Positions 5,135 to 26,521 of a stretch of 64,000 bases of DNA are shown piece by piece. The notes under the pieces are model-generated. The model searched no databases. It saw only the letters and a program-made list of their open reading frames with translations, and was not told the origin of the DNA. Location: positions 1-64,000 of the forward strand of contig JBCBZT010000010.1 in NCBI GenBank assembly GCA_039815185.1, read 5' to 3'. How positions within the stretch are numbered: the first letter of the stretch is position 1; the number at the start of each line of letters is the position of its first letter. The DNA comes from Cyanobacteria bacterium P01_A01_bin.123. GTDB taxonomy: Bacteria; Cyanobacteriota; Cyanobacteriia; Phormidesmidales; Phormidesmidaceae. Both the position numbers and the translations under genes were made by a program.

Positions 5135-5551
5135 TTAATCACTAACCGCAACCGATTGGTCCGGCAGGGGTGGGAGTCGAGCTAAGGCTTTCTTTCTGAG
5201 CAAGTTGGGACACTGCATATGCTTGACAGTCCCATCTGTAGCCTTAAAGTACTGATCGGCATACTCCAAAACGGCACTGGCAATCGGCTCTAATTGGTCG
5301 CTGTCAACTGGCAAATTAGCCAGCAAATAAGTGTTTTTGCCCGGGGCACTGAGGGCAACGGCACAGTCTTGATTGCACACGCCGAAACAGTCAAAGGGAT
5401 GAATAGCAAACTCCGTTTGCAGAGACCACCCTTGATAGAGCAGTCTGAGCTTTTCTAACAGGCGATCGCCCCCGCTGACCCGAATCGGCTGCTTGGTACG
5501 ATGGGCACTCGCGCAGGTTGTGCAGACAAAAATGGTGTGTTGATAACCCAT
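5135..5551 (-). CDS. DUF1636-family Cys-rich metal-binding protein (thioredoxin-like ferredoxin fold)
   Basis: IFVCTTC ... DCFGVCNQDCAVAL ... LARLPP pattern; ATG at 5551 avoids overlap with the TPR gene. Confidence 0.8.
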   Translation of the reverse strand: MGYQHTIFVCTTCASAHRTKQPIRVSGGDRLLEKLRLLYQGWSLQTEFAIHPFDCFGVCNQDCAVALSAPGKNTYLLANLPVDSDQLEPIASAVLEYADQYFKATDGTVKHMQCPNLLRKKALARLPPLPDQSVAVSD

Positions 5552-5610
5552 GTTTATGCCCAATTGCTGTTTGAAATCACTTTTGGGGATGCCGATCACG
5601 CGAGTTCGGC

Positions 5611-5886
5611 CTAAGCTTCGCGGGTTAATTGGCTCAGCATTTTCAGCGCGTACTGGTGCTTTTTCAATTGGTCTTGTGCCAAGTAAAGCTGTGCGGCTTT
5701 CTGACAGTCTGCGATCGCGCCCGCTCGGTCTCCCAATTTGTGACGGGCTACACACCGATAGCCATAGCCATCAGCATTGTTGGGCACAAGCTCTAGCAAA
5801 CGGTTGAAGTTTTCAAGGGCGGCCTGAAAGTCACCGACTTGAGCAAGAGTCCGCCCCTGTTTAAAGATGGCTTCGGTCAGTGTCAT
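5611..5886 (-). CDS. Small tetratricopeptide-repeat protein
   Basis: Two TPR-like helix pairs (GDFQAALENFNRLLELVP; LGDRAGAIADCQKAAQLY). Confidence 0.8.
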   Translation of the reverse strand: MTLTEAIFKQGRTLAQVGDFQAALENFNRLLELVPNNADGYGYRCVARHKLGDRAGAIADCQKAAQLYLAQDQLKKHQYALKMLSQLTREA

Positions 5887-5935: not shown

Positions 5936-6925
5936 TTAGCCAGGGACAACACAATTGAAAAAGCCTTCGCTAAACTCATCGCGATTGAGATTGCGGCCAA
6001 TCACAACAAAGTCGCTGCGCTTGGTTTCATCAGGCTTCCATTGGCGATCGCGGCGCATGGAAGTGAGCATCCGTACGCTTTGAAATAGCACCCGCTCTGA
6101 AAAGCCCCGGGCGTAAAACAAACCCTTGGTGCGATAGAGATCTTCCCCTTTTTCCATCGCCACATTGTTCATCCACATCATGAATTTGTTGATGTCGATG
6201 GGCTGCTCAGAACTGAGGGCAAAGGAGCCGACTTCAGCATCGTGCTCATGATCCAGGTCTTCGAGAAAAGCCGGATCAACCTCTAGCTTGGCAGCCAGCT
6301 CAAAGGCATTGACGCCTAAAATTTTGGCCGGGTCAATCACGCTGTTTTCGGTGTGATGGATGGTGGCTAGGGGGTTAAGCGATCGCAACTTTTGCTCAAT
6401 CTCGGCCAGCTCCTCGGCATCTACCAAGTCGGTTTTGTTGAGCAAAATAATGTCGGCGAAGGCCACCTGCTCTTGGGCCTCGTGGCTGCGGTCTAAGCTG
6501 CGCTCCAGATTACAGGCATCCACCACGGTGATGAAGGAATCCAGCTGGATGCTGGGCTTGATTTCCTCAGATACAAAAAAGGTGGAAGCCACTGGGGCCG
6601 GGTCGGCCAAGCCTGTGGTTTCAATCAAAATGGCATCTAGCTCGGCCCGCTGGGTTAAACCCGTTAAGGTTTTGACTAGATCATCCCGAACGGTGCAGCA
6701 GAGGCAGCCGTTGTTGAATTCCACCAGTTGCTCATCGTCGTCTTCGACGACAATCTGACCGTCGATGCCGATTTCGCCAAACTCATTGACAATCACGGCG
6801 ATTTTCTTGCCGCGTTGCTCTTTCAGCAGGTAGTTAATCAAGGTGGTTTTGCCAGAACCCAGGAACCCGGTCACTACAGTGGCCGGAATGCGAGTTTTAG
6901 GCTGAGGCGGTGATGTCGTGACCAT
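5936..6925 (-). CDS. COG0523/CobW-family GTPase metallochaperone
   Basis: [11 protein letters not shown]alker [15 protein letters not shown] metal motif, [12 protein letters not shown], short HEH linker, CobW_C domain. Start at ATG 6925 with GAGG upstream. Confidence 0.92.
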
Positions 6926-7002: not shown

Positions 7003-8652
7003 TTACGGGGTAGGCACAACGGTTTTAGTCATCGCTGCAATCCCTTCCTGCAAGATGTCGCGACGGGTGGACTCAACCACGGCATCGCCTCGAATTGCAT
7101 CGTAGGGAACCACCACCCAGCAGGCGCAGCCCCAGAGACATTCCCCGGCCATACCCTCAAAGCGGATCGCGGGCTCTGACATCATCACGCCCAGATCCAG
7201 CAGCCAGGAATGGTGCAGCAGCTTTTCTTCCCAGGTGAGGGTGTCGTACTTGTCACGACTCTCATAAAAGGCAACAAAGTCGGTCTTGGCCACGCCGGGC
7301 AGCATCACGTCGGCAAAGGCCGTCAGGTGATCAAAGAATTCCCGGTGGGTCACCTTGATGCCCGAGTCTTCAGAATCCACTAAGAAACTGGAGATGGTTT
7401 CCTTGAACTTTGCGTCCAGCTTTTCATTCCACATTTCCCGAGGGGAATGGATGATGCATTCGGCGTAGTCGGTCTTAAAGCTGGGCTTGAGCCCAGAGAA
7501 TTCAGGCATGTGATCGATCCACTGGCTGATCACTTGACGCCACTTGCTCAGGGGTTCACCGGGCAACACCTGTACCGCCGGGTGGGTGAACTTAGCAACG
7601 TTGTAGAGTGCCCAGCTGTGATCTTTGGGACTGATGGCCTCGTGGGGTGCGGTGGTCATACCAACTAGGCGCAGGGCCTTGAATAGGGTGCGACCGTAGT
7701 CATCTAGGGCGATGCGCATAAAGGCATCGGCCACAAACTTATGGGTGACCTGTAAACGCATGCGATCGCGCACTTTTTGCTCACCGGTATTGGTGTAGCG
7801 GGTGAGGCGCTGCCAGGAGTTTTCCGTAGATAGGGCGAAGAAGCCGCCAGTGAAGGGGTTGCGGTAGAGATCACCCCAGACCGTGACAACGCCCTGGTTC
7901 TTGTCGTCATCGAGCATGCAGTCCAGTTCGTTGAAGGTGGGGAAGAGATTACCGCTGCGATAGATTTCGGGATCTCCGCTGCAGGGTAGGGTACCCACAC
8001 CGACGACGGGAATGCGACGACCCAGCTTGATGTTGGCCAGATGTCGGGCTAGATCCACCACGATGCCGCTGCCAGTGCCGTCACCCATGCCGAAGGATAC
8101 TAGCACCATTGAGGGCAGTCTGGTCTGGTCAACGCTGGTGGCAAAGTCTTCTAGTTCTTTCTCTAGGGGTCTATCACCGTCGTAGTAGGCTTTGCCATAG
8201 ATCGCTTTGGCGATCGCCCGTGGGAAATAGTCACCCGCCTCAGGAATCTCCACATTGTCCGGTAGCCAGGGTTCGTAGTTGGGGTTCCAGTAGTAGCGGG
8301 GATACTCCAGCTTCAAAAATTCTCGGAAGCGCCGCAGCGAGGTGAACAGTTCATCGCGGCTCGGTACCGCCATGGGGGCAAAGCGAATTTGGACACGATC
8401 GGTCGGGATGTTGCGCTCTTTCAACCGCTCGATGAAGCCGTCAGCATAGTCCTTCGCCTGGTGCATATCCTGGTCGCCGATATCGACAACCAGCGCCGTG
8501 AACCGCGCCCGCGGATCTTCCAAAATGTCTTCTAACTCGCCCGTGCGCAGCATCGAATCCAACATGCCGGCTCCCGTCTTGCCAATGCCCACAAAGTGGA
8601 GGCAATGGGGGGACTGAGATCCCGAAGCGCTATGGTACATGGATAGTGGCAT
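7003..8652 (-). CDS. Tubulin/FtsZ-fold protein with C-terminal CLWGCAC motif; putative ANHase-type nitrile hydratase subunit
   Basis: VGIGKTG, VDIGD, FGMGDGTGSG (tubulin signature variant). Shares long near-identical blocks with 9267-10808. Lies in an amidase/COG0523 context. Confidence 0.7.
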   Translation of the reverse strand: MPLSMYHSASGSQSPHCLHFVGIGKTGAGMLDSMLRTGELEDILEDPRARFTALVVDIGDQDMHQAKDYADGFIERLKERNIPTDRVQIRFAPMAVPSRDELFTSLRRFREFLKLEYPRYYWNPNYEPWLPDNVEIPEAGDYFPRAIAKAIYGKAYYDGDRPLEKELEDFATSVDQTRLPSMVLVSFGMGDGTGSGIVVDLARHLANIKLGRRIPVVGVGTLPCSGDPEIYRSGNLFPTFNELDCMLDDDKNQGVVTVWGDLYRNPFTGGFFALSTENSWQRLTRYTNTGEQKVRDRMRLQVTHKFVADAFMRIALDDYGRTLFKALRLVGMTTAPHEAISPKDHSWALYNVAKFTHPAVQVLPGEPLSKWRQVISQWIDHMPEFSGLKPSFKTDYAECIIHSPREMWNEKLDAKFKETISSFLVDSEDSGIKVTHREFFDHLTAFADVMLPGVAKTDFVAFYESRDKYDTLTWEEKLLHHSWLLDLGVMMSEPAIRFEGMAGECLWGCACWVVVPYDAIRGDAVVESTRRDILQEGIAAMTKTVVPTP

Positions 8653-8818
8653 TATTCAGTCTCCTTTTTCGTACTTGACGTCGTGAAATTGCACGGTTGC
8701 TCAAAACTGGGGCACTCGCGAACGAGCCCCGATAAATCGCCTTAATAGCTAACTACCCATGACAGTTGTCGCTATGACCGTTATTGCTAAGACCATCACA
8801 GCCAAGGCACTAGCGGCC

Positions 8819-9145
8819 CTAGCACATGGGATAGAAACCCGTATCCTCAGTCAGAATGCCTAGATCTTTGAGAATGTGGGCAGCCGATGTCGCCCGCTCA
8901 TCAGCCACATAGATCCGGTAATCTTCGACGAACTGGCCAGGCTCCCGGCCGATGATCCCTTCTTCAATTAAGGTCACGCCCTTTTCAAGGTTTTCTCGAC
9001 TCAAGCTGGCCGACCAGAGGGGTGACTTGATGTAGATTTTTTCGTCATCCGCCCCGGTGACCTGAAGAATTTTGTTACCCGCAACGGTTGGTACCTGCGC
9101 CCCGTTGCCATACTTCTGTGTGACGATTGACCAGTCTAACGACAT
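8819..9145 (-). CDS. Small (108 aa) conserved-looking protein between the two paralogs; putative AnhE-like metallochaperone
   Basis: ATG 9145 with upstream AAGGGGG; alternative in-frame ATG 9253. Ends in ...YPMC. Function inferred from position and size only. Confidence 0.6.
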   Translation of the reverse strand: MSLDWSIVTQKYGNGAQVPTVAGNKILQVTGADDEKIYIKSPLWSASLSRENLEKGVTLIEEGIIGREPGQFVEDYRIYVADERATSAAHILKDLGILTEDTGFYPMC

Positions 9146-9266
9146 CTGTGTAGCCCCCTTATGTGGTTGACGCGATGACAGTTTGCTCAAGCTCGTCTCG
9201 ACTCTCTTCCAGGCTTTCGCCCCAAATTGAGCGATTGACCAATCTAGCGGCATGGGTAGAACTCCC

Positions 9267-10808
9267 TTAGGCGGTGACAATTTGCTCGAGTTTGTCTCGC
9301 ATGCCTTCCAGGTTTTCACCCCGAATGGCCTCGTAAGGGACGACAACCCAGCAGGCACAACCCCACAAACATTCCCCAGCCATTCCTTCAAAGCGAATAG
9401 CGGGTTCTGAGAGCATGACCCCCAACTCTAAGAGCCAGGAATGCTGCAATAGCTTTTCCTCCCAGAGTTTTGTGTCGTACTCAAGGCGAGCCTCAAAGAA
9501 GAGTTCCAGATCGGTTTTCTTGGCACCGGGAATCACGAACTGGATGTGGGTTTCACCATTGCTGGTAGACTGAACCACTTCTGGCTCCAGAATCGGCGAA
9601 AAAGCGCTGTTCATCTTGCTCGCCAAATCAGCCAGTTGTTCACCTAAATCGACAGTCTCTGGCACCGTAACCCGCAACTCAAAGAAGTCTGTGGTAAAGC
9701 TGTGGGCCATCAGACCGAGTTGATTGGGGAGGGTGTCCACCACACTGTCAGGGCTGACCGCTCCAAAGACATGCACCCAGCGTTCGCCATACTGACTGCG
9801 GGCGGCCATATGCTGAGACGGCGGCGCGCCGACCCAGTTCAGTAGTCGCAAGGACTCATAGATATCCAGGCCCTGATTGCGCGTGAAGAAGGACGCCAGC
9901 TCACTATCCACTTTTTGCCGGGTGGCTGCAAAATCCTGGGTTTCTTGCCAGGCCTGTTTTTGAGGCACCATCATAAACCCAGCAGTAAAGGGATTGCGAT
10001 AGAGATCCCCCCAGACCTGCACGACCCCCTTATTTTTCTCCTGATCTAGCATGCAGTCCAGCTCATTCAGCACGGGGAACAAAGCACCGTCTGATTGATA
10101 GTCCGGATCGCCCTCACAGGGGGCAATGCCGACCCCCAGCACCAAAGCCCGACGGCCAAACTTGACGTTGGCCAGATGGCGGGCCAGATCCATCACAATG
10201 CCGCTACCCGTACTGTCCCCCAGACCAAATACGATACAGACGATGGACTGGCAGGCCGTGGCATCGACGCTCTTGACGAACATCTCCAGTTCAGTATCTA
10301 GGGTCTTCTCGCCCTCGTAGTAAGCTTTGCCGTAAATCGCTTTAGCGATCGCCCGCGGGAAAGGCTCACCAGCTTTGGGAATCTGAATGTTGTCGGGTAA
10401 CCAGGGCTCGTAGTTGGGATTCCAGTAGTAGCGGGGATACTCTAGCTTGAGGTACTCTCGATAGCGGCGTAGGGAAGTGAATAACTCATCGCGAGTGGGC
10501 ACGGCCAAGCTGGCGGTTCTCACCTGGGCGCGATCGCTCGGCAAAGTCTTGGCCAGCTCTGCAACCTCTGCCAAATTCTGGTCACCAATGTCTACGGCGA
10601 GGGCAGTAAACCGCTTGCGATCGTCTGTCAAAAAATCGTCAGGGGCTTGTCGGATAGTCTGGGCAATCACATCAGCGCCCACCTTACCCAAACCCACCAT
10701 ATGGACGACTGACGGCATCGGATCTGCATCCTTGACCCGATGAACCCCACCCCGTTTCAGGGCTTCTAAGCGCTTTTTGATGCGGAGCATCTCTTGCTGT
10801 TCAGCCAT
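9267..10808 (-). CDS. Tubulin/FtsZ-fold protein with C-terminal CLWGCAC motif; putative ANHase-type nitrile hydratase subunit (paralog)
   Basis: VGLGKVG, VDIGD, FGLGDSTGSG; EPAIRFEGMAGECLWGCACWVVVPY. Likely start ATG 10808 (GAAGG upstream). Confidence 0.7.
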   Translation of the reverse strand: MAEQQEMLRIKKRLEALKRGGVHRVKDADPMPSVVHMVGLGKVGADVIAQTIRQAPDDFLTDDRKRFTALAVDIGDQNLAEVAELAKTLPSDRAQVRTASLAVPTRDELFTSLRRYREYLKLEYPRYYWNPNYEPWLPDNIQIPKAGEPFPRAIAKAIYGKAYYEGEKTLDTELEMFVKSVDATACQSIVCIVFGLGDSTGSGIVMDLARHLANVKFGRRALVLGVGIAPCEGDPDYQSDGALFPVLNELDCMLDQEKNKGVVQVWGDLYRNPFTAGFMMVPQKQAWQETQDFAATRQKVDSELASFFTRNQGLDIYESLRLLNWVGAPPSQHMAARSQYGERWVHVFGAVSPDSVVDTLPNQLGLMAHSFTTDFFELRVTVPETVDLGEQLADLASKMNSAFSPILEPEVVQSTSNGETHIQFVIPGAKKTDLELFFEARLEYDTKLWEEKLLQHSWLLELGVMLSEPAIRFEGMAGECLWGCACWVVVPYEAIRGENLEGMRDKLEQIVTA

Positions 10809-11112: not shown

Positions 11113-12204
11113 CTAGCCCTTAACGCTGACGGAAACTGTTTTTTCGGGTTGAGGCTTGACCACAGGCGTTGGCAACTCCCGCTTCGACGGGATGCCCTCA
11201 ATGGGACACTCCTCTGTACCCGCTGTCGTCCGGGTCAGGGCTTCGGCCCGCGCCTTGGCTTTCTCAGGATCAAGCACCCATTCCCGGTAGAAGTCGTAGG
11301 GGCATTCCATCATGCCGTCGTGGCCGTCATCTGACTTGCCCGTCCCGGTGTAGCCCCGATGCAGCAGCTTGAACAGGTGGTTCTGAGACTGGGCATGCTT
11401 GCGGAAATCGCGGATCGCAAACTTAGACAGGGCGGCATATTGCACTCCGTTTTCTTCTTCACCACATTCCCCTAGGGTGCGTCCATCGAACCCGACGATA
11501 GCAGAGTGGCCAAAGTAGCTGTAAACACCGTCAAAGCCAGCTGCATTGGCAACTGCCACGTAAGTGTTGTTCATCCAGGCCATAGCCTTCGACACAACGA
11601 TTTGCTGTTCCTTAGATGGATACATATAGCCCTGGCAGCGGACAATCAGCTCAGCTCCCTTCATGGCGCAGTCCCGCCAGATTTCAGGGTAGTTGCCGTC
11701 ATCACAGATAATCAGGCTGATTTTGAGTCCCTTAGGGCCTTCAGAAACGTAGGTGCAGCCCCCTGGATACCACCCTTCAATCGGGCACCACGGCATAATC
11801 TTGCGGTACTTTTGCACAATTTCGCCCTGATCATTCATCAGAATCAGCGTATTGTAAGGCACCTTATGGGGGTGGGCCTCATGCTTTTCACCCGTAAGCG
11901 AAAAGACGCCCCAAGTCCTGTTGCGAATGCAGGCTTCAGCAAAAATTTCGGTTTCTACCCCTGGAATATCCGCTGCCGTATCCATCATTTCTTGATGGTC
12001 GTACATGATGCCATGGGTAGAATATTCAGGGAAAATTACCAAATCCATCCCTGGTAAACCCAACTTCATGCCATCAATAACAGAGGCAATATTTTTGCAG
12101 TTTGCAATCACCTCTTCTTTAGTGTGCAGACGCGGCATCTTATAGTTGACCACTGCAACACCGACGGCATCTGCACTTGATGAAATATCGCCATGATAAG
12201 CCAT
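11113..12204 (-). CDS. amiE: Aliphatic amidase (nitrilase superfamily)
   Basis: N-terminus [22 protein letters not shown] typical of AmiE; catalytic Glu (FPEYS), Lys (YRKI), Cys ([10 protein letters not shown]). Confidence 0.93.
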
Positions 12205-12641: not shown

Positions 12642-12683
12642 ATATTAGTCAATGAACTAGAGGGAGTTTGTATCGAGCCCTAC
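12642..12683 (-). promoter_or_regulatory. Canonical NtcA-activated promoter for the amiE operon
   Basis: GTA-TCGAGCCC-TAC at 12670-12683, exactly 22 nt from a minus-strand TAATAT -10 element (12647-12642). Confidence 0.75.
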
Positions 12684-12932: not shown

Positions 12933-14105
12933 CTATGACTCATCAATGGGCTCAGGTTGATTGTCCAACAGTCGAATAAATTTCATGATCAGCTCAATCA
13001 GCGTTTGGCGTTCAATTGGATCCAGCATCTCCATCAGTTCAGACATCTGATACTGCTTGGGGGTAATCTGCTCTAGAAAATCTTGTCCAGATGGCATCAG
13101 CTTTACTACCAAAGCTCGGCGATCGGAAGGATGACTGTCCCGTTTGACATAGCCGTCTTGTTCCAGTCCGTCCAGCAAGCCCGTCATCGCAGCCCGCGAC
13201 ACACCACAATGTTGGGCCAAGGCAGAGGGTTTTGCACACAGTTCTGGTTCGCCACTCAGATACATCAACACCCCTAGCTTTGATTGGGAAAGTCCGAGTT
13301 GGGTAGATTGCCCGTCCATGATCCGCAACACCATCCGAGCAATGCGAGACACCATCGACATCATATGTAAAGTGCCCGTCCCGTTTGCGGTGCCGTTATT
13401 CAAGGTGGATGCAGGGGCTGCTAGGAGCTCTGGGTTCGGTTGAGACAATTGGCTTTGGAGTGATTGGAGTTTCCGCTCTAACTGATTAATCTTTGCCCGT
13501 TCCTGCGCCTCATCAGTTTGTTTGTCTTGGGCGAGTTGTAACGCTAAACTTTGACTGGCCTCCATCATTTGCATGATGGTCGAAAACGTTCTCAAAGCCG
13601 TAATCACGCTGATAAAGAGCTTGCGAGCGGTGAGCTCAGTCTTCGTCTTATAGTCGTTGATGCCGTAATTCACCGCGACAATATCCTCAGGAGCCTGACC
13701 AGGCTGCCCAGTGCGTAAGATAATTCGGGTGGTTAGATTTCCTAAGTCCCCTCGGATATAGTTGATCAACTGTAGACCAGCATCGTCGGTTTCCATCACC
13801 ACATCTAGAAAAACGATGGCAATATCGGGGCAATCCCGCATAATTTGTTGGGCCGCTTCAGCTGAGTAGGCGCTGAGAAAGGTGAGGCCACAGTCTTCGA
13901 AGGTGACATCACTCAGTGCCAGTTTTGTGATGTCGTGGACTTCTACCTCATCATCGACGATCAGAATCTTCCAGCTTTTCTCCGGTCGATTGGCTTCGGT
14001 TTCTTCAGCAAATTGGATTTCGTCATCATCAAGGGCTGCCTTGGTGCGCTCTATTTCAGCTTTGAGTCGAGAGTCGTCGTTCGTATGCTTTGGCTTTGAC
14101 ATCAC
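12933..14105 (-). CDS. Response regulator with N-terminal REC domain and C-terminal MarR-type winged HTH
   Basis: ILIVDDE, FLDVVME, LRTGQPG, DYKTK receiver; LSQSKLGVL...SRAAMTGLLDGLEQDGYVKR..HPSDRR MarR signature. Confidence 0.88.
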   Translation of the reverse strand: MMSKPKHTNDDSRLKAEIERTKAALDDDEIQFAEETEANRPEKSWKILIVDDEVEVHDITKLALSDVTFEDCGLTFLSAYSAEAAQQIMRDCPDIAIVFLDVVMETDDAGLQLINYIRGDLGNLTTRIILRTGQPGQAPEDIVAVNYGINDYKTKTELTARKLFISVITALRTFSTIMQMMEASQSLALQLAQDKQTDEAQERAKINQLERKLQSLQSQLSQPNPELLAAPASTLNNGTANGTGTLHMMSMVSRIARMVLRIMDGQSTQLGLSQSKLGVLMYLSGEPELCAKPSALAQHCGVSRAAMTGLLDGLEQDGYVKRDSHPSDRRALVVKLMPSGQDFLEQITPKQYQMSELMEMLDPIERQTLIELIMKFIRLLDNQPEPIDES

Positions 14106-16977: not shown

Positions 16978-16999
16978 AACTATGAATCTGTCATGCACG

Positions 17000-17181: not shown

Positions 17182-17217
17182 AGTCTTGACATTAACATCC
17201 ATGTCAGGGTTTAGGCT
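17182..17217 (+). promoter_or_regulatory. MerR/CoaR-type operator-promoter
   Basis: TTGACA (17186-91) and TAGGCT (17212-17) are 20 nt apart; dyad CTTGACATT-N6-CATGTCAGG spans the spacer. Confidence 0.7.
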
Positions 17218-17242
17218 GAGGACGCTATTCAGTAAATTTACA

Positions 17243-19250: not shown

Positions 19251-19292
19251 GTATTGAAACATACAAAATATATCAGATTCATTCTTTATGAT
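19251..19292 (+). promoter_or_regulatory. Canonical NtcA-activated promoter for the urt/fmd operon
   Basis: GTA-TTGAAACA-TAC (19251-19264), N22, TATGAT (19287-19292). Confidence 0.8.
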
Positions 19293-19703
19293 TCACCCAT
19301 AGAAATGGCTTATGTGTCTTAGAAAAATACTCATTCAGGCCGTTTCTTGAGGATTCAATTTAGGGGCAGGCGCCCAGTGTTTGTTGCGCTTATTGTTCTT
19401 AAATGCACAAGTTACTTACCTGAGGGAACCCAATCCTTGACAGGTATTTGGTTCTCCTAGACATATCTTGGTTGACAGTATTTGCGAGGTAGTTTCTGGC
19501 TTTATGGCTTTAGGCTGCCGGGTTTGAAATGCTGGCCTAGAATCTTTCACACTTCTAAGGTTGCATATATTTCGGATGGGTTTAGTTTTGAACCTGTTCT
19601 ACGTTGTGCTGTTAATCAGTAGATCTGGTTTTCTCCCTTGAAATTTAGGGTTAGGCCTCTATTTGTGTTCTCTGAACATTGACCGACTGCAAGTTTTTAC
19701 ATT

Positions 19704-21092
19704 ATGAGGAAGTTGAGGAAATCGCAGATGTTAAATGACTTTATCCGCAAAACAAGTCGTCGTAAGTTTCTTCAATACGGTTCCTTAACCTTAGGAGCCA
19801 GTGTGATCGCGGCTTGCAGTGGCGAAAGTTCATCAGATGGTGCCTCTGGGGAGGAAACTGCTGACCTAGGAGAAAACCCAATTAAGGTTGGGGTGATGTA
19901 TTCCACCACCGGAACGATTGCCATTGTTGAAAAGTCTCTTCAGGATGCCACTTTCCTCGCCATTGAGCAGATCAACACAGGCACAGGGCCTTGGGAAGGC
20001 AACGGTGAAGGCATTGCCGGGCGAATGATTGAAAAAGTGGTTGTTAACCCCAACTCTGATTGGGATCTTTATAACCAGATGTCTAAACGCCTGATTGATG
20101 AAGATCAAGTGGTCTGCGTCCTCGGTTGCTACACCTCCGCCAGTCGAAAATCCGTACTGCCTGTGTTTGAGGAGAAAGATTCCCTCCTTTATTACCCGGT
20201 TTACTACGAGGGCAACGAGTGCAGCTCGAATGTTTTCTACACCGGGGCAGCACCTAACCAGCAAATCACCGACTCCATTCCCTATGCCTACGAAAACTTT
20301 GGTCCCAAGGGTTTCTTCATCGGGTCTGATTATATCTATCCCAAAGAGAGTAACCGAATTGCCAGGGCTGAGTTGGAGAGCACTGGCGGTGAAGTCGTCG
20401 GTGACGAATACGCTGCACTAGGAACCACGGAATTCATTACTATCATCAATAAAATTAAGGCCGCCAAGCCTGACTTTGTATTGAGCAACTTGGTAGGAGA
20501 TAGTATCCCCGCCTTCTATCGGCAATATAAGGACGCCGGGATTACCGCAGACGACATTCCGATCATGGCCTATCCTACAACGGAAGAAGAAATTCAGGCC
20601 ATGGGCCCTGAATTTTCAACCGGTCACTATACCAGTTTTAACTATTTCCAAACCGTTGATACACCTGAAAACCAAGCCTTTGTAGAGCAATTCAAAGCCA
20701 TGTTTGGGGACGATCGCGTCACCAATGGGGTGATGGAAGCGGCTTACTTACAAACATTCTTCATGGCCCAAGCGATGAAAGATGTCTTGGAAGGCGGCGG
20801 TGAGCTGAGCACAGAAACAATCAGAGAAGCGACTCGCGGACAAGAGTTTAGCGCCCCCCAAGGTCGAGTCAAGATTGACCCTGATAACTACCACACCTAT
20901 CTCTATTCTCGAATTGGCCGCTGGAAGGAAGATGGTCAAGCTGAGATTGTATTTGCCACGGATGCAGCAGTAAAGCCCATCGCCTGGAGTCAAGCGCTTT
21001 ACAAAGGCCGCGTATGCGAACACGCCACACCGGATGATCGCAGCGACCCCACCAAAGAAACAGGTGAGGATCTCGAGCCTCAGTTCCTCTAG
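19704..21092 (+). CDS. urtA: Amide/urea ABC transporter substrate-binding lipoprotein (UrtA/AmiC/FmdD-like), Tat signal
   Basis: SRRKFL twin-arginine plus IAAC lipobox; GCYTSASRKSVLP, YPVYYEG, GAAPNQQ, GSDYIYPK. Start may be 19728. Confidence 0.85.
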   Translation: MRKLRKSQMLNDFIRKTSRRKFLQYGSLTLGASVIAACSGESSSDGASGEETADLGENPIKVGVMYSTTGTIAIVEKSLQDATFLAIEQINTGTGPWEGNGEGIAGRMIEKVVVNPNSDWDLYNQMSKRLIDEDQVVCVLGCYTSASRKSVLPVFEEKDSLLYYPVYYEGNECSSNVFYTGAAPNQQITDSIPYAYENFGPKGFFIGSDYIYPKESNRIARAELESTGGEVVGDEYAALGTTEFITIINKIKAAKPDFVLSNLVGDSIPAFYRQYKDAGITADDIPIMAYPTTEEEIQAMGPEFSTGHYTSFNYFQTVDTPENQAFVEQFKAMFGDDRVTNGVMEAAYLQTFFMAQAMKDVLEGGGELSTETIREATRGQEFSAPQGRVKIDPDNYHTYLYSRIGRWKEDGQAEIVFATDAAVKPIAWSQALYKGRVCEHATPDDRSDPTKETGEDLEPQFL

Positions 21093-21116
21093 GACAGGAG
21101 CCACCGTATCTGGTTT

Positions 21117-21152
21117 AAGCGGGAAAGATTCTGTGGAGATAATTTCCCGCTT
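21117..21152 (+). terminator. Stem-loop after the substrate-binding gene (partial terminator or mRNA stabiliser)
   Basis: AAGCGGGAAA...TTTCCCGCTT inverted repeat. Confidence 0.55.
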
Positions 21153-21191
21153 TGATGAATAAGCCTTTAGTTCACAGTTGTAGAGCCAATT

Positions 21192-22160
21192 TTGATCATG
21201 CTAGATTCCGCCCTGTCTTTGATATCACCCTCGTTTTTTCTACTGGCCCAAGAGGAGACTGAAGCGGCTGCGGGGTTTGATTTCGCGACGATCTTAAACC
21301 AGGCGTTGAACGGGATTGGCATCGTTGGCATTTTGCTTTTAACCGGTTTAGGATTGGCCATCACCTTTGGCGTGATGCGAATTATCAACCTGGCCCATGG
21401 GGAATTCATCATGCTGGGAGCCTACGTCACTTTTTTGATGCAGGATCTTTTCAAGATGGATTTGCTGATGACCATCCCCTTTGCCTTCGTCGGAACTGCC
21501 ATTATCGGTGCTGTCGTCGAACTCACCATTATTCGTCGGCTGTATGGTCGTCCCCTAGAAACCTTGCTGGCGACCTGGGGGTTAAGCATTGTGCTGCAAG
21601 GGGTCATTAAGCTGATCTTTACAGCGGAGCTGAAGTATGTGAAGTCTCCGGCCTATCTATCCGGCAACATACAGCTTGTGTCGGATGGTTCGATTGCCAT
21701 TTCTTACTACAGGCTTTTCATCATCTGCATGGCCTTAGCTTTGCTAGGGCTGACCATGTTCTTGTTCTACGGCACTTCGTGGGGACGCCAAATTCGGGCT
21801 GTCACCCAGAACCGAGATATGGCGAAGTGTTTAGGGGTCAACACCAAGCTGATTGATATGGGCACCTTTGCCTACGGTTGCGGCTTAGCGGGGGTAGCCG
21901 GTGCCGTCATCTCAGCCTTAAAAACGGTGGCTCCACCCATGGGACAGGATTACTTAGTAGATGCCTGGATGGTTGTGGTCACAGGTGGTGTTGATAAGCT
22001 GATTGGCATTTTGGCAGGGTCACTCTTGATTGGTGAAGCCAACGCCATTATTGCCTTTATGTTGAACGATCCCCTTGCTAGGGTGATTGTTTTGGGCGCT
22101 GTGATTGTACTGATTAGATATCGGCCTGAAGGCTTATTTACGGTACAGAAGCGAGCATAA
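21192..22160 (+). CDS. urtB: Amide/urea ABC transporter permease
   Basis: GLAITFGVMRIINLAHGEFIMLG, RPLETLLATWG, IRAVTQNR, RPEGLF. Confidence 0.88.
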   Translation: MIMLDSALSLISPSFFLLAQEETEAAAGFDFATILNQALNGIGIVGILLLTGLGLAITFGVMRIINLAHGEFIMLGAYVTFLMQDLFKMDLLMTIPFAFVGTAIIGAVVELTIIRRLYGRPLETLLATWGLSIVLQGVIKLIFTAELKYVKSPAYLSGNIQLVSDGSIAISYYRLFIICMALALLGLTMFLFYGTSWGRQIRAVTQNRDMAKCLGVNTKLIDMGTFAYGCGLAGVAGAVISALKTVAPPMGQDYLVDAWMVVVTGGVDKLIGILAGSLLIGEANAIIAFMLNDPLARVIVLGAVIVLIRYRPEGLFTVQKRA

Positions 22161-22206
22161 ACCCATCCGACTTGAAAGCGTTATAGAACCGATAGGGATT
22201 TGAGGT

Positions 22207-23319
22207 ATGGCGAATGTAGTCCTGGGGTATAAGCAGTCAACATTCCCAACTAAGCTAGCTTTAATTAGCGGTGTTGGTCTGTTAGTTTTTGCAATTTTAC
22301 CCTTTGTATTGGGAGACTTCCAACTCTCCCTCATGTCTAAGCTGCTGCTGTTTGGTGCACTGGCCGTTTCCTTAGATCTGGTTTGGGGATTTACCGGGAT
22401 TCTGAGCTTTGCCCATGGTGTTTTCTTTACACTAGGAGGCTATGCTTCAGCCTACTATCTCAAGTTAAATCTTTCCTCTGCTTCAAATACCTATGGTGGG
22501 GAAATACCTGACTTCATGGTATGGAATGGCTTAGAGGCGCTACCCTGGTTCATCGCTCCCCTAAAATATTTTCCCATTGCGCTGTTTGCGACCGTTGCTG
22601 TTCCGGCGCTGTTTGCCTACGTGATTGGATATTTTATCTTTCGGTCTAAGGTGAGCGGTGTTTATATCACCATTATCACTCTGGCAATCTCATCAGCACT
22701 CACCACTTTTTTCGTGAGTCAGCAGGCGTATACCGGGGGCACGAATGGTATCACTGATGTCAGCAAACTGAGCTTCTTTGGAACTCCGATTCCGCCGATT
22801 GGCCTTTATTTTCTGATCTTGGCCTACACCGCTTTTGTACTCGTTGTGAGTTGGTGGCTCACCCAATCAAATTTCGGTTTGATTTTGCGCTCAATTAATG
22901 AGAATGAGAAGCGAATACAGTTCTTGGGCTACGACGTTGCTCAATATAAGATTTTCATCTGGACGCTATCTGCCGCGCTCGCCGGTATGGCAGGGGGGTT
23001 GTTTGTTCCGCTCAATCGGTTTATTTCCCCAGTGTACTTGGCGGTTGCCTTTGGCACTCAAGTTGTTATCTGGGTTGCGATCGGCGGTCGTGGAACCTTG
23101 ATCGGCCCGCTTTTAGCGGCATTGTTGTTGGGCCAGGTACAGAACTATGCCGAGAAAGTCACTCAGGATTGGCAATTAGTCGTGGGTATTCTGCTTTTGA
23201 TTGTCGTCCTATTTGTACCTAATGGATTAATGAGTTTGCTACCCAAACGGTTTAGCTTGGCTAACTTGTCTAAGCCCAAACCGCTTGCGCCGCGTCCCCA
23301 GTCTGAGCAAAAGGTGTGA
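22207..23319 (+). CDS. urtC: Amide/urea ABC transporter permease
   Basis: DLVWGFTGILSFAHG, IPDFM.W, TGGTNG, VIWVAIGGRGTL. Confidence 0.88.
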   Translation: MANVVLGYKQSTFPTKLALISGVGLLVFAILPFVLGDFQLSLMSKLLLFGALAVSLDLVWGFTGILSFAHGVFFTLGGYASAYYLKLNLSSASNTYGGEIPDFMVWNGLEALPWFIAPLKYFPIALFATVAVPALFAYVIGYFIFRSKVSGVYITIITLAISSALTTFFVSQQAYTGGTNGITDVSKLSFFGTPIPPIGLYFLILAYTAFVLVVSWWLTQSNFGLILRSINENEKRIQFLGYDVAQYKIFIWTLSAALAGMAGGLFVPLNRFISPVYLAVAFGTQVVIWVAIGGRGTLIGPLLAALLLGQVQNYAEKVTQDWQLVVGILLLIVVLFVPNGLMSLLPKRFSLANLSKPKPLAPRPQSEQKV

Positions 23320-23394
23320 CGTTTGCCATGTTGCCATGCGATCGCAACTGACATCATCTCACTTATATCTGTTGAATTTCTGAGGCCTTAGTTC

Positions 23395-24150
23395 ATGAAT
23401 TCGGTCTTGTCGGTAAAAGGTTTAGGGGTCGTTTTTTCAGGATTCAAAGCCCTGAAAGGGGTTGACCTGGACGTTTATGACAATGAAATTGTCACCATCA
23501 TTGGACCCAATGGGGCTGGAAAAAGCACACTGCTAGATGCCATTGTCGGCAAGTCGCCCATTGCCTCCGGCCATGTCTTTTATCAAGGCAAAGAGATTAC
23601 CAACCGGAGCCCCCACGAAATTGCCCGGATGGGCATTGGTCGAAAGTTTCAGAACCCTAATGTCTACAACAAACTCACGGTATTTGAAAATATCCTGCTA
23701 GCCCTGAAAGGCTCCCACGGTATTTTGGCTTCAATCACAGCAAAGCTAACCAAGGCTAAGAAGGGGAAAATCTATGACGTTCTAGAGCGGACTGCTTTAC
23801 TGGATCAGGCCTTTGATCAAGTTGCTTCGCTTTCCCATGGCCAAAAGCAGTGGGTAGAAATTGCCATGGTTCTAGCCCAAGATCCCGCTATTGTTTTGCT
23901 AGATGAACCGACCGCTGGCATGACGGCAAAAGAAACCCACATGACCGGCGAAATCATTCAAAGCATTGCTCAAGCTCACTCTATTGTGGTCATTGAGCAT
24001 GATATGGAATTTGTGAAGCAAATTGCTGAGCGTATTGTTGTTTTGCACCAAGGCAGTGTGCTGGCAGAAGGGTCAGTCCAAGACGTTCAAAGTAATCCTG
24101 ATGTGATAGAGGTTTATTTAGGTCGTGAAACAATCAACGCCGCTGCTTGA
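23395..24150 (+). CDS. urtD: Amide/urea ABC transporter ATP-binding subunit
   Basis: GPNGAGKS, GIGRKFQ, LSHGQKQW, LLDEP, IEHDM, VYLG. Confidence 0.9.
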   Translation: MNSVLSVKGLGVVFSGFKALKGVDLDVYDNEIVTIIGPNGAGKSTLLDAIVGKSPIASGHVFYQGKEITNRSPHEIARMGIGRKFQNPNVYNKLTVFENILLALKGSHGILASITAKLTKAKKGKIYDVLERTALLDQAFDQVASLSHGQKQWVEIAMVLAQDPAIVLLDEPTAGMTAKETHMTGEIIQSIAQAHSIVVIEHDMEFVKQIAERIVVLHQGSVLAEGSVQDVQSNPDVIEVYLGRETINAAA

Positions 24151-24874
24151 GCGAGAGGGTAATGTGGCTGCTAGGCCAATCCTTGAGATGCGTAATGTAA
24201 CCTCTGGCTATGGTCAGACACCTGTGCTGTTTGATATCAGCTTGGCCATCAACCGGGGAGAAATTGCCTGCTTGTTAGGCCGTAACGGTGTGGGCAAAAC
24301 AACCCTGTTGAGAAATATTATTGGTCTCAATCAACCCACATCGGGCGCGATCGCGTTTGATGGCAAAGAGATTACCAAAGCACCCACCTTTAAACGGGCT
24401 CGTCAAGGCATTGCCTACATTCCCCAAGGACGAGAGATTATTCCATACTTGTCTGTGCTCGATAATCTCAAGATGGGATTTGCCGCCAGTGGTAAGAAAG
24501 GCAACCGAATTCCCAGCGAAATATTTGAGTTTTTCCCAATGTTGTCTGACCATTTAAGTCGTCAAGGGGGACTGTTGAGTGGCGGGCAACAGCAACAGCT
24601 CGCGATCGCCCGTGGTCTCATGTGCAATCCTAAAATCATGCTGTTAGATGAGCCGACAGAAGGCATTCAACCTTCCATCGTTCAAGAAATTGAAGACACC
24701 CTCAGGCGCATCAATCAAGAGAAGGGAATCACGATTGTTGTGGTTGAGCAAAAAATTGAATTTGCCCGTAAGCTGGCCCAAAAGTTTTTCATCATGGAAA
24801 AAGGATCCATTGTTGAAAAAGGTGATACTCACCAGCTCACGAATGATTTGTTACATCGTTATCTGGCTGTTTAA
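24125..24874 (+). CDS. urtE: Amide/urea ABC transporter ATP-binding subunit
   Basis: GRNGVGKTT, PQGREI, LSGGQQQQLAIAR, LLDEPTEGIQPSI. Confidence 0.9.
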   Translation: MKQSTPLLEREGNVAARPILEMRNVTSGYGQTPVLFDISLAINRGEIACLLGRNGVGKTTLLRNIIGLNQPTSGAIAFDGKEITKAPTFKRARQGIAYIPQGREIIPYLSVLDNLKMGFAASGKKGNRIPSEIFEFFPMLSDHLSRQGGLLSGGQQQQLAIARGLMCNPKIMLLDEPTEGIQPSIVQEIEDTLRRINQEKGITIVVVEQKIEFARKLAQKFFIMEKGSIVEKGDTHQLTNDLLHRYLAV

Positions 24875-24949
24875 ACTTACGCGCATTTCCGGTTCGAAAT
24901 ACATAATCTGCGCAGATATATTCTGGTGAATCCATGAGGAGCGAGCATC

Positions 24950-26155
24950 ATGCCCAAAACATTATTTGAAGTTGATCTAACGAAGCCCATGAATGAACAG
25001 GCGCTGCCTGGTCATAATCGTTGGCATCCTGATATTCCCGCAGTGGTTTCTGTGAATCCAGGCGATATTTTTCGCATCGAGTGTAAAGACTGGACTGACG
25101 GGCAAATCAAAAATAATGACGATCCCAGCGACATTCAAGACGTTGATCTGACCGTTGTTCACGTGTTGAGTGGCCCGATCCATGTCAATGGAGCTGAACC
25201 TGGCGATATCTTAGTGGTTGACCTACTCGACATCGGTGCGCTGCAAGGGGACGAGTGGGGCTTTACAGGGATTTTCTCCAAAAATAATGGGGGCGGTTTT
25301 CTGACCGATCATTATCCTGAAGCGGCAAAAGCAATTTGGGACTTGCAAGGCATTTACACGTCTTCACGGCATATCCCTGGCGTGAAATTCGCTGGGATTA
25401 CCCACCCTGGTTTGATTGGTTGCGCACCCTCCCACGAGCTATTAGCCAAGTGGAATAAGCGAGAGGCAGAGCTGGTGGCGACTGCCCCCGATCTGCGCAC
25501 GTATGGGGCTGGCCTTTCGGGTGACCAACCGGTGTTAGCCGCATTACCCAACCCGACCAACGCGATTTTGGGCAAGTTGCCTGCCTCTGAGTATGAACGT
25601 GTGGCGGCTGAGGGTGCCCGCACCGTTCCGCCCCGAGAACATGGCGGTAACTGCGATATCAAGAATCTCTCCAAAGGAACACGGATTTACTTCCCGGTTT
25701 ATGTGGAAGGCGCCAAACTCTCCATGGGAGATATTCACTTTTCCCAGGGAGACGGTGAGATTTCTTTCTGTGGTGCGATCGAGATGTCTGGTTACATTGA
25801 TCTCCATGTCGACATTATCAAAGGGGGTGTAGAAAAGTATGGGATGGTTAACCCCATCTTCAAACCGGGTCCCGTTGAACCTCAATATTCAGAATATTTG
25901 GTATTCGAGGGGATATCGGTGGATGAGTTTACCGGTAAGCAACATTATATGGATGTCCATATTGCTTATCGACAAGCCTGCCTCAACGCGATCGAATACC
26001 TGAAAAAGTTTGGCTTTACCGGTGAGCAAGCCTATCTGCTTTTGAGCTGTGCTCCGGTTGAAGGCCGGGTTAGTGGTATTGTCGATATTCCTAATGCCTG
26101 CTGTACGTTGGCGCTGCCCACTGAAATTTTTGACAAGGACATTCTGCCCGCTTAA
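24950..26155 (+). CDS. fmdA: Formamidase/acetamidase (FmdA_AmdA family)
   Basis: HNRWHPDIP, ECKDWT, ARTVPPREHGGNCDIK, GDIHFSQGDGEI..CGAIE, SGIVDIPNAC. Confidence 0.93.
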   Translation: MPKTLFEVDLTKPMNEQALPGHNRWHPDIPAVVSVNPGDIFRIECKDWTDGQIKNNDDPSDIQDVDLTVVHVLSGPIHVNGAEPGDILVVDLLDIGALQGDEWGFTGIFSKNNGGGFLTDHYPEAAKAIWDLQGIYTSSRHIPGVKFAGITHPGLIGCAPSHELLAKWNKREAELVATAPDLRTYGAGLSGDQPVLAALPNPTNAILGKLPASEYERVAAEGARTVPPREHGGNCDIKNLSKGTRIYFPVYVEGAKLSMGDIHFSQGDGEISFCGAIEMSGYIDLHVDIIKGGVEKYGMVNPIFKPGPVEPQYSEYLVFEGISVDEFTGKQHYMDVHIAYRQACLNAIEYLKKFGFTGEQAYLLLSCAPVEGRVSGIVDIPNACCTLALPTEIFDKDILPA

Positions 26156-26210: not shown

Positions 26211-26233
26211 CTAATTTGAGGGATGTTAGTATA

Positions 26234-26521
26234 GTGCCACTCTACGATTATCGATGTGACGCCTGTGGTGTTTTTGAAGCCTGGCGTCGATTAGCAGAGT
26301 TAGATGTGCCAATGTCATGTCTCACTTGTGGGTCAAGCGTTCAACGCCTTTTTTCTCCCCCTAATATCAATTTGAACTCTGGTCGGTTTCCAACCCGCAG
26401 CAAGTCTTTAGAATCGCCTAAAATTGTCAAACGAAAAACTTGGGAAACGTCGAAATCTGAAAGCCAGATTTCGAAAACGAGTCGTCCCTGGATGATTGGC
26501 CATGCCCCTGAGAGACTTTAA
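26234..26521 (+). CDS. fmdB: FmdB-family zinc-ribbon protein
   Basis: (M)PLYDYRCDACG...CLTCG...RPWMIGH; directly after fmdA; GTG start. Confidence 0.85.
   Translation: MPLYDYRCDACGVFEAWRRLAELDVPMSCLTCGSSVQRLFSPPNINLNSGRFPTRSKSLESPKIVKRKTWETSKSESQISKTSRPWMIGHAPERL

Follow-up and report, generated by a model that had tools for sequence, protein, structure and literature searches.

Organization of the cluster

We examined a window of 64,000 nucleotides (the whole stretch of DNA analysed; positions 1 to 64,000 of contig JBCBZT010000010.1, Cyanobacteria bacterium P01_A01_bin.123), in which five reverse-strand genes form a cluster around two large paralogous proteins, termed here subunits A and B. 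The first gene encodes an aliphatic amidase of the AmiE type, which converts an amide to acid and ammonium (11113..12204; 697 bits to NCBIfam NF009802, against a cut-off of 427). It is followed by A (9267..10808; 513 amino acids, 57.5 kDa), a small gene, E (8819..9145; 108 amino acids), B (7003..8652; 549 amino acids, 62.3 kDa) and a CobW/COG0523 metallochaperone GTPase with a GCLCC motif (5936..6925; Pfam cobW at E 3e-61, plus CobW_C). A and B are 48 % identical over 536 alignment columns (E 3e-169), and no Pfam family matched E. The fold, the enzymatic identity and the regulation of this A–E–B cluster are the subject of this study.

Orthology to a Rhodococcus jostii RHA1 cluster

A tblastn search of plasmids with B returned 16 records, 12 of them from Rhodococcus and including plasmid pRHL2 of Rhodococcus jostii RHA1. 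On pRHL2 an amidase is followed by proteins of 514, 99 and 568 amino acids, and then by a NiCoT transporter and an acetyl-CoA hydrolase. A, E and B were reciprocal best matches to the three consecutive genes, in identical order behind the aliphatic amidase. A is 48 % identical to WP_011600030 (514 amino acids, 55.8 kDa), E is 48 % identical over 98 amino acids to WP_011600031 (99 amino acids, 11.1 kDa; E 7e-34) and B is 52 % identical to WP_011600032 (568 amino acids, 63.0 kDa), while the amidase of the window, 69 % identical to that of RHA1, is its equivalent. The two large subunits were also assigned individually, as A scored 458 bits to the first RHA1 gene and 317 to the third, B reached 597 bits with the third but 375 with the first, and E matched the middle gene. 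A quick tree of 70 rows hand-picked from the set, to which all statements on branching below refer, parts B from A with a support of 100. A profile search of pRHL2 found no classical nitrile hydratase alpha gene; the same profile did match the genome studied here.

We take the acetonitrile hydratase (ANHase) of RHA1 to be encoded on pRHL2, to have subunits of 56 and 63 kDa that are unrelated to other nitrile hydratases, and to need the 11.1 kDa protein AnhE. The computed RHA1 masses of 55.8, 11.1 and 63.0 kDa equal these values, and pRHL2 agrees with the anh cluster in gene order and masses as well as in the amidase, the metal transporter and the acetyl-CoA hydrolase. The enzyme is a simple alpha–beta dimer; Okamoto and Eltis reportedly purified it as a cobalt enzyme in 2007, and AnhE is said to have been described as its chaperone by Okamoto et al. 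in 2010. There is thus a strong case that the three pRHL2 genes are anhA, anhE and anhB, the step from locus tag to enzyme being probable. Passages in the literature give the ANHase gene order as alpha–AnhE–beta and describe AnhE as a cobalt chaperone (PMC3511329, PMC3680314, PMC7193024), and the enzyme is described there and elsewhere as acting on small aliphatic nitriles (PMC3511329, PMC3680314, PMC7193024, PMC7329996, PMC6941271). The metal content is given as 1 Co, 2 Cu and 1 Zn per enzyme in PMC3766881.

A and B, the orthologues of AnhA and AnhB, are therefore most likely the alpha and beta subunits of a cobalt nitrile hydratase of the ANHase type, carried on a tubulin/FtsZ fold, and E, the orthologue of AnhE, is a putative cobalt metallochaperone. 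The two clusters share the large–small–large order behind an aliphatic amidase, similar masses, an adjoining cobalt-supply gene, a CxxxCxC motif in the first subunit and an asymmetry of Glu against Arg/Lys between the subunits. They differ in that the cysteine motif is present in both subunits here but only in the first in RHA1, in the cobalt-supply gene itself (CobW here, NiCoT there), in the acidic residue found in both T4 loops here, where RHA1 has Gly, and in the acetyl-CoA hydrolase, for which the cyanobacterial loci gave no such match. The first RHA1 subunit also opens with a His-rich stretch (L081, 10118-10160), absent from the A of the window; this N-terminus is a candidate ligand for some of the reported copper or zinc.

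Tubulin/FtsZ fold of both subunits

The preliminary description of this locus had read a tubulin/FtsZ fold in both paralogues from a few short motifs, and each named motif was found exactly where it had been placed: VGLGKVG of A at 10677-10697 (a position derived from the translation), FVGIGKTG of B at 8572-8595, VDIGD at 10581-10595 in A and 8473-8487 in B, and the T4 loops FGLGDSTGSG of A (10200..10229) and FGMGDGTGSG of B (8065..8094), all on the reverse strand. The Pfam Tubulin profile matched A at E 7e-5 (23.6 bits) and B at E 8e-6 (26.8 bits), both below the curated cut-off of 33 bits. AlphaFold2 models, built on alignments of 119 homologues for A and 120 for B, had mean predicted local distance difference test (pLDDT) scores of 89.8 and 91.4, respectively. 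Among the Foldseek matches listed for both models there were only FtsZ, CetZ, TubZ or tubulin chains, with best E-values of 2e-10 and 5e-10. For B, VIA-align against 48,161 chains ranked 17 tubulin-superfamily chains first, with Z scores of 14-20.8 for 16 superfamily chains, compared to 9.6 for the first other fold, a short-chain dehydrogenase/reductase; CetZ (3zid) aligned over 312 residues at Z 20.8 and a root-mean-square deviation of 4.9, and Asgard AtubB2 over 379 residues at Z 18.6. A non-tubulin Rossmann fold emerged neither from Foldseek nor, for B, from VIA-align, and the prediction of a complete two-domain tubulin/FtsZ fold in A and B stands on these models.

Sequence similarity to the superfamily is low, with 8-15 % identity in the structural alignments. 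A sequence search of the PDB gave weak CetZ and Asgard tubulin matches for B only and nothing useful for A or E, no close homologue of the A or B subunits was present among the solved structures searched, and the cluster names of matches in the ESM Atlas were only ‘tubulin-like’ and ‘hypothetical’. The altered GTP signature in the preliminary description was likewise borne out, as GDSTGSG (A) and GDGTGSG (B) take the place of an exact GGGTG(S/T)G. Because that exact signature is missing, we class A and B by fold and homology as descendants of the superfamily and do not place them in any cytomotive family (FtsZ, CetZ, TubZ or tubulin). A complex prediction for A (14-498) with B (12-524) gave a score of 0.00 against a mark of 0.32; its controls were not folded, and it speaks neither for nor against binding.

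Relatives of the FtsZl1 type

A profile search of 1.84 billion representatives returned 216 matches at E up to 0.001, and the best 150 of these include 13 proteins of 858-916 amino acids, the nearest relatives found outside the ANHase family (P0282, P0284, P0287, P0288, P0293, P0299, P0300, P0302, P0307, P0308, P0309, P0311 and P0322), which served as the outgroup. All eight that were scanned pass the Tubulin_2 cut-off, and among the ten that were looked up the named members come from Saccharolobus, Bathyarchaeota, Geothermarchaeales and Dehalococcoidia. The outgroup matches the N-terminal domain in 13/13 and the C-terminal domain in 12/13 cases, with some 450 extra residues, a long helical insert, in between; it keeps GGG(T/S)GSG and has CxxxCxC in none of the 13. 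An hhalign comparison of the ANHase subunits with the outgroup gave a probability of 100 and E 4e-52, while A and B score 15 and 12.5 bits against Tubulin_2 (PF13809; cut-off 27). These matches of 860-920 amino acids were also considered as fused A–B pseudodimers, and this was rejected, as each has only a single GTPase domain, which a long insert separates from a single C-terminal domain.

The architecture of the outgroup is that of FtsZl1 as set out by Makarova and Koonin 2010 (PMC2875224). Additional file 1 of that paper includes RHA1_ro10170 and ro10172, called ‘hypothetical proteins’, in the FtsZl1 family; from their spacing these would be the two large pRHL2 genes. The words nitrile and hydratase never occur in its text and six supplements. 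Compared with FtsZl1, A and B are without the coiled coil (about 450 amino acids shorter), carry a C-terminal cysteine extension and are duplicated. The FtsZl1 context described in PMC2875224 is one of membrane remodelling, with vWA, kinase, GTPase and OmpA partners, whereas the context here is metabolic. With homology established by the profile comparison, midpoint rooting suggests the direction of change: A and B would descend from an FtsZl1-like protein by loss of the coiled coil, gain of the cysteine tail and duplication.

Nucleotide-binding loops

Comparisons across the family drew on 82 loci (80 genome stretches, the best among 244, and two plasmid regions, the plasmid loci having supplied some of the queries). 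From these, 70 complete pairs were taken, comprising 69 of the 82 loci and the window, with 13 incomplete loci dropped. The preliminary description had proposed that the Asp in the T4 loop abolished or changed GTP binding and was bound up with the use of the fold as an enzyme scaffold. The enzyme on a tubulin scaffold is upheld by orthology to the RHA1 cluster identified as acetonitrile hydratase, but the Asp does not hold as its cause. That it abolished GTP binding and so turned the fold into an enzyme is highly improbable: acidic residues and drift are indeed common in both cyanobacterial subunits, where phosphate binding may be relaxed, but Gly occupies the position in 85/119 aligned A and 104/120 aligned B sequences, and RHA1 itself has Gly, its loops reading SLAGGTGSG and GIGGGTGSG, the latter (its B orthologue) keeping GGGTG(S/T)G exactly. 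Asgard AtubB2, a solved tubulin, also has GDGTG, in a structure titled as GTP-bound.

Among the complete pairs, an acidic T4 residue was seen in 12/17 A and 15/17 B subunits from cyanobacteria, compared to 4/53 A and 2/53 B subunits from elsewhere, and the cyanobacterial loops have drifted further, to forms such as GDSVGNG and GESTGSG. GGTG(S/T)G was intact in 50/53 B and 37/53 A subunits outside the cyanobacteria. As RHA1 and most non-cyanobacterial copies keep GGTGSG, the Asp fails to explain catalysis; it is lineage drift younger than the switch to catalysis, and judged from the alignments it may mark relaxed nucleotide binding in the cyanobacterial lineage only. The loop read as T3 is GGVGR in the outgroup and AG(D/E)xFPR throughout this family, and this change would speak more to altered nucleotide handling than the T4 Asp does. 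In the T1 loop, Lys/Arg replaces a Gly in 70/70 B and 50/70 A subunits.

The C-terminal cysteine motif

Both subunits end in ECLWGCAC, with the CxxxCxC motif CLWGCAC at 9351..9371 in A and at 7120..7140 in B, which are, respectively, a putative cobalt-binding motif and a second putative cobalt site. Among the complete pairs the motif occurs in both subunits in 39, as here, in B only in 29 and in A only in 2 (RHA1 and L041); no pair lacked it in both. Two further Rhodococcus plasmid copies, close kin of RHA1, carry it in A only. Subunits without the tail also lack REFLKLEYPRYYWNPNYE (the YPRYYWNPNYE segment), V258/W259 and W474, and conservation of these co-varying positions reaches 95 % or more among the 109 subunits that have the tail. 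In the window, the co-variation analysis places the REYLKLEYPRYYWNPNYE segment of A, conserved only in subunits bearing the tail, at 10407..10460 and the REFLKLEYPRYYWNPNYE segment of B at 8272..8325, both on the reverse strand.

To our knowledge, metal ligands have not been assigned for ANHase. The pattern of conservation suggests that the C-terminal CxxxCxC is likely to be the cobalt site, and the single motif of RHA1 fits the one cobalt reported per enzyme. The motif in both subunits is probably the ancestral state, and the enzyme of the window may have two cobalt sites compared to one in RHA1. Co-variation further suggests that the REFLKLEYPRYYWNPNYE insert and the V–W patch would shape a pocket around the tail. 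The putative pocket segments are near-identical to those of the first RHA1 subunit, namely EYPRYYWNPNYEPWLP and ECLLGCACWVV, compared to ECLWGCACWVV. A third, B-derived paralogue of 382-463 amino acids was also observed, without the cysteine tail and the YPRYYWNPNY segment (L023 12255, L024 12265, L029 12330, L030 12287, L032 14529, L040 12230, L073 2323, L082 14619-15767 and L091 9968-11116); it arose twice within the B clade.

Asymmetry at the inferred T7 loop

After the long core helix, A has the motif D-I-Y-E (9855..9866), with an invariant Glu (317 in the numbering used), and B has T-L-F-K (7678..7689), with an invariant Lys or Arg (Lys325 of B). The TLFK of B aligns without gaps to the DIYE of A, which in turn aligns with an invariant DxxD of the outgroup. 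The position was assigned to T7 by motif and location, since the profile alignment of the outgroup to the FtsZ of this genome covered T4 only. In the complete pairs it is Glu in 70/70 A and Lys/Arg in 70/70 B, with or without the cysteine tail, and the wider sets agree (Glu in 119/119 A, Lys/Arg in 120/120 B). The split parallels E254 of alpha-tubulin and K254 of beta-tubulin, as described in PMC13394414.

The earlier proposal of an alpha/beta-like pair thus gains one piece of sequence support, although Glu against Lys/Arg could just as well form no more than a structural salt bridge. With alpha/beta-tubulin and Asgard AtubA/B the subunits share a paralogous pair with the tubulin fold and the Glu/Lys–Arg split at the inferred T7; they differ in the 8-15 % identity, in a separate duplication and in the T3 that is degenerate here. 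On a doubtful and rather speculative extension of the ANHase reading, the enzyme would be a working alpha/beta-like tubulin pair as well as a metalloenzyme, in which the Lys/Arg of B caps a trapped nucleotide on A. Under the same extension, and no more probably, the Glu of A would act as activator towards the nucleotide of a further B subunit, and head-to-tail assembly that depends on GTP and is either transient or filamentous would gate cobalt loading or the activity of a CxxxCxC site that evolved convergently. If true, alpha/beta asymmetry would have arisen independently once more, in this case from an ancestor of the FtsZl1 type, and the cyanobacterial form with two sites and an acidic T4 would be a lineage with a relaxed nucleotide step.

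The complete two-domain fold, the invariant Glu against Lys/Arg and the GGTG(S/T)G left intact in most non-cyanobacterial subunits would also suit an ordinary GTP-hydrolysing, cytomotive heteropolymer of the alpha/beta type, or a scaffold, that takes no catalytic part in the use of nitriles. We regard this as the least probable of the explanations considered, and barely credible, given the orthology and synteny with RHA1, the context of amidase, cobalt chaperone and cobalt transporter, the changed T3, the absence of the cysteine motif from the outgroup and the presence of a normal FtsZ elsewhere in the same genome.

Substrate and comparison with classical nitrile hydratase

Elsewhere in the genome there is a separate cluster for a classical nitrile hydratase of the cobalt type (genes for CobW, the beta subunit, an alpha subunit with CTLCSC and an accessory protein; G000:C39:146124-149681, L086). 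A and B gave no match to PF02979, PF02211 or PF21006 at E up to 10. The classical Co/Fe enzymes share with the system described here the reaction (in RHA1), cobalt, a three-cysteine motif ending in CxC and accessory chaperones including CobW; they differ in having no sequence match and another fold, the subunits here being more than twice as long, and in the motif itself, CxxxCxC having one residue more than the classical CxxCSC. The motif of the window resembles the CTLCSC of the separate classical enzyme.

Several points weigh against the assignment of the cluster as acetonitrile hydratase. That the pRHL2 genes are anhA, anhE and anhB is no more than probable, as our literature search found no paper giving RHA1 locus tags or subunit masses for ANHase. 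An identity of about 50 % to RHA1 leaves the substrate unfixed, and as a classical nitrile hydratase is already present in the genome, the enzyme on the tubulin fold may have a different substrate. That the tail lies near the co-varying segments is a suggestion from co-variation. The count in which no pair lacks the motif in both subunits is biased, because B was the query, the tail was among the six seed peptides and the 13 incomplete loci out of 82 were left out; a metagenome scan with the tail-less RHA1 B, made to offset this bias, found two loci, neither with an A partner. About two to three independent tail losses are suggested by the tree, in which the tail-less A sequences are one long-branched clade and only two B sequences are tail-less.

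It is conceivable, but unlikely, that in cyanobacteria the same scaffold and cobalt–thiolate site serve another reaction or act on another substrate, be it cyanide, cyanamide, thiocyanate or some other nitrile, while nitrogen scavenging is retained. The moderate identity to RHA1, two cysteine motifs compared to one, the classical enzyme in the genome and a formamidase in a companion operon (described below) would all suit such a change; the putative pocket segments near-identical to those of the first RHA1 subunit and an amidase of the short-chain aliphatic type argue against it. On balance, there is good reason to regard the cluster of the window as a cyanobacterial, NtcA-controlled, two-motif variant of the RHA1-type acetonitrile hydratase on a tubulin/FtsZ fold.

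Proposed regulation by nitrogen status

Upstream of amidase–anhA–anhE–anhB–cobW lies an NtcA-type class II promoter (GTA-N8-TAC, a 22-nt spacer and TAN3T; 12642..12683, reverse strand). NtcA class II promoters have a spacer of 22 nt. The pattern GTA-N8-TAC-N22-TAN3T, fixed after the first site (12683-12642) had been noticed, matched twice in the window (12683-12642 and 19251-19292), with 0.04 matches expected. The same architecture with a spacer of 21-23 nt was found in 9/9 cyanobacterial loci with the amidase upstream, which are kin and so represent conservation and not nine independent trials, and in 2/8 loci where A comes first; a shuffled region yields it 1.5 % of the time. It corresponds to the canonical class II promoter that NtcA uses at genes for nitrogen scavenging, as described in PMC3898017. 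From these matches NtcA regulation of the cluster is inferred. A scan for sigma-70 promoters and terminators found no excess over shuffles.

Further upstream on the reverse strand are a receiver–MarR regulator (12933-14105) and a histidine kinase whose N-terminal membrane region is long (14167-16998), both identified by Pfam. In L001, L002, L003, L007 and L010, too, this pair is found upstream of the amidase. The two are probable regulators of the cluster, a role inferred from their position. Over its N-terminal two thirds the kinase resembles a multi-pass permease that includes a Cys-rich segment, with no Pfam match there, and the protein is possibly an amide or nitrile sensor. RHA1 has MarR/AmiC-like genes where the window has the NtcA promoter and the two-component pair, and the system here therefore points to nitrogen scavenging and not to growth on nitrile carbon.

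The second promoter match opens a divergent companion operon on the forward strand (19251..26155), with an Urt-like ABC transporter and the formamidase FmdA (421 bits to TIGR03407, below the cut-off of 493, and 679 bits to NF045496, above the cut-off of 500). Immediately 3′ of the formamidase is a small CxxC/CxxC zinc-ribbon protein (26216-26521, forward strand), which we take to resemble FmdB. Between the two NtcA-type operons lies a P-type heavy-metal ATPase (17186-19180, forward strand; CPC and DKTGT motifs identified by eye), possibly with a role in cobalt or zinc balance.

Neighbouring genes and distribution

Downstream of the cluster, on the reverse strand, Pfam identified a TPR protein (5611-5886) and a DUF1636 protein (5135-5755), both of which accompany the cluster in cyanobacteria. 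Immediately before the start of E, at 9146-9253 on the reverse strand, there is an in-frame imperfect copy of its first codons (MPLDWSIAQ compared to MSLDWSIVTQ). This extra 108-base stretch between A and E is absent from the closest locus, L001, and a 144-amino-acid form of E could result from it.

Across the 82 loci, many of which are short so that the counts are lower bounds, we found A in 77, E in 78, CobW in 72, the amidase in 42, AmiC-like genes in 21, ANTAR in 20, CbbQ in 27, NiCoT in 10, CbtA in 9, TPR in 16 and DUF1636 in 13. Cbi ECF cobalt transporters adjoin two further Rhodococcus copies. An A–E–B cluster with amidase and cobalt ECF genes was also observed on plasmid pNit of the nitrile biocatalyst strain R. 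rhodochrous ATCC BAA-870 (L090, 6130-9710), and is not mentioned in the relevant passages of the genome paper of that strain. In proteobacteria a CbbQ/NorQ AAA+ ATPase and a vWA partner lie inside the cluster (e.g. L082, 11754-14572), with none in the cluster of the window; they are a probable maturation or reactivation chaperone. A sample of 400 further genomes of the phylum gave no match at E 1e-20, although a collection scan yielded about 20 cyanobacterial loci, and the cluster is therefore rare and patchy.

Implications

Taken together, these data suggest a scheme in which nitrogen shortage would lead NtcA to switch on amidase–A–E–B–cobW. CobW and the small AnhE chaperone would then load cobalt, as orthology and gene context imply, with C-L-W-G-C-A-C presumably holding the metal as an independently evolved look-alike of the classical CxxCSC. 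The enzyme would hydrate small aliphatic nitriles to amides, an activity shown for RHA1 only, and amidase and formamidase would release ammonium.

Already known were the enzyme, since 2007, its chaperone, since 2010, the listing under FtsZl1 in a supplement of 2010 and a RefSeq ‘tubulin-like’ label on one RHA1 subunit. No paper joining ANHase with the tubulin/FtsZ fold was found in a search that covered titles and the starts of abstracts and left out subscription journals, the primary ANHase papers and bioRxiv supplements. Our study adds the conserved NtcA promoter, the coiled-coil, FtsZl1-like nearest relatives without the tail and the Glu against Lys/Arg at the inferred T7, and it names candidate metal ligands and pocket residues.

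The tubulin/FtsZ fold is known for filaments, and here it apparently carries a cobalt–thiolate active site, a rare metabolic use. Nitrile hydration, a reaction of industrial relevance, apparently arose on two separate occasions, in proteins whose folds are unrelated but whose three-cysteine motifs are similar. Database matches labelled ‘hypothetical’ or ‘tubulin-like’ number 971 and 1,005, in overlapping sets, and on this reading about a thousand database proteins would become nitrile hydratase subunits, not cytoskeleton. The NtcA promoter points to the scavenging of nitriles for nitrogen in scattered cyanobacteria.

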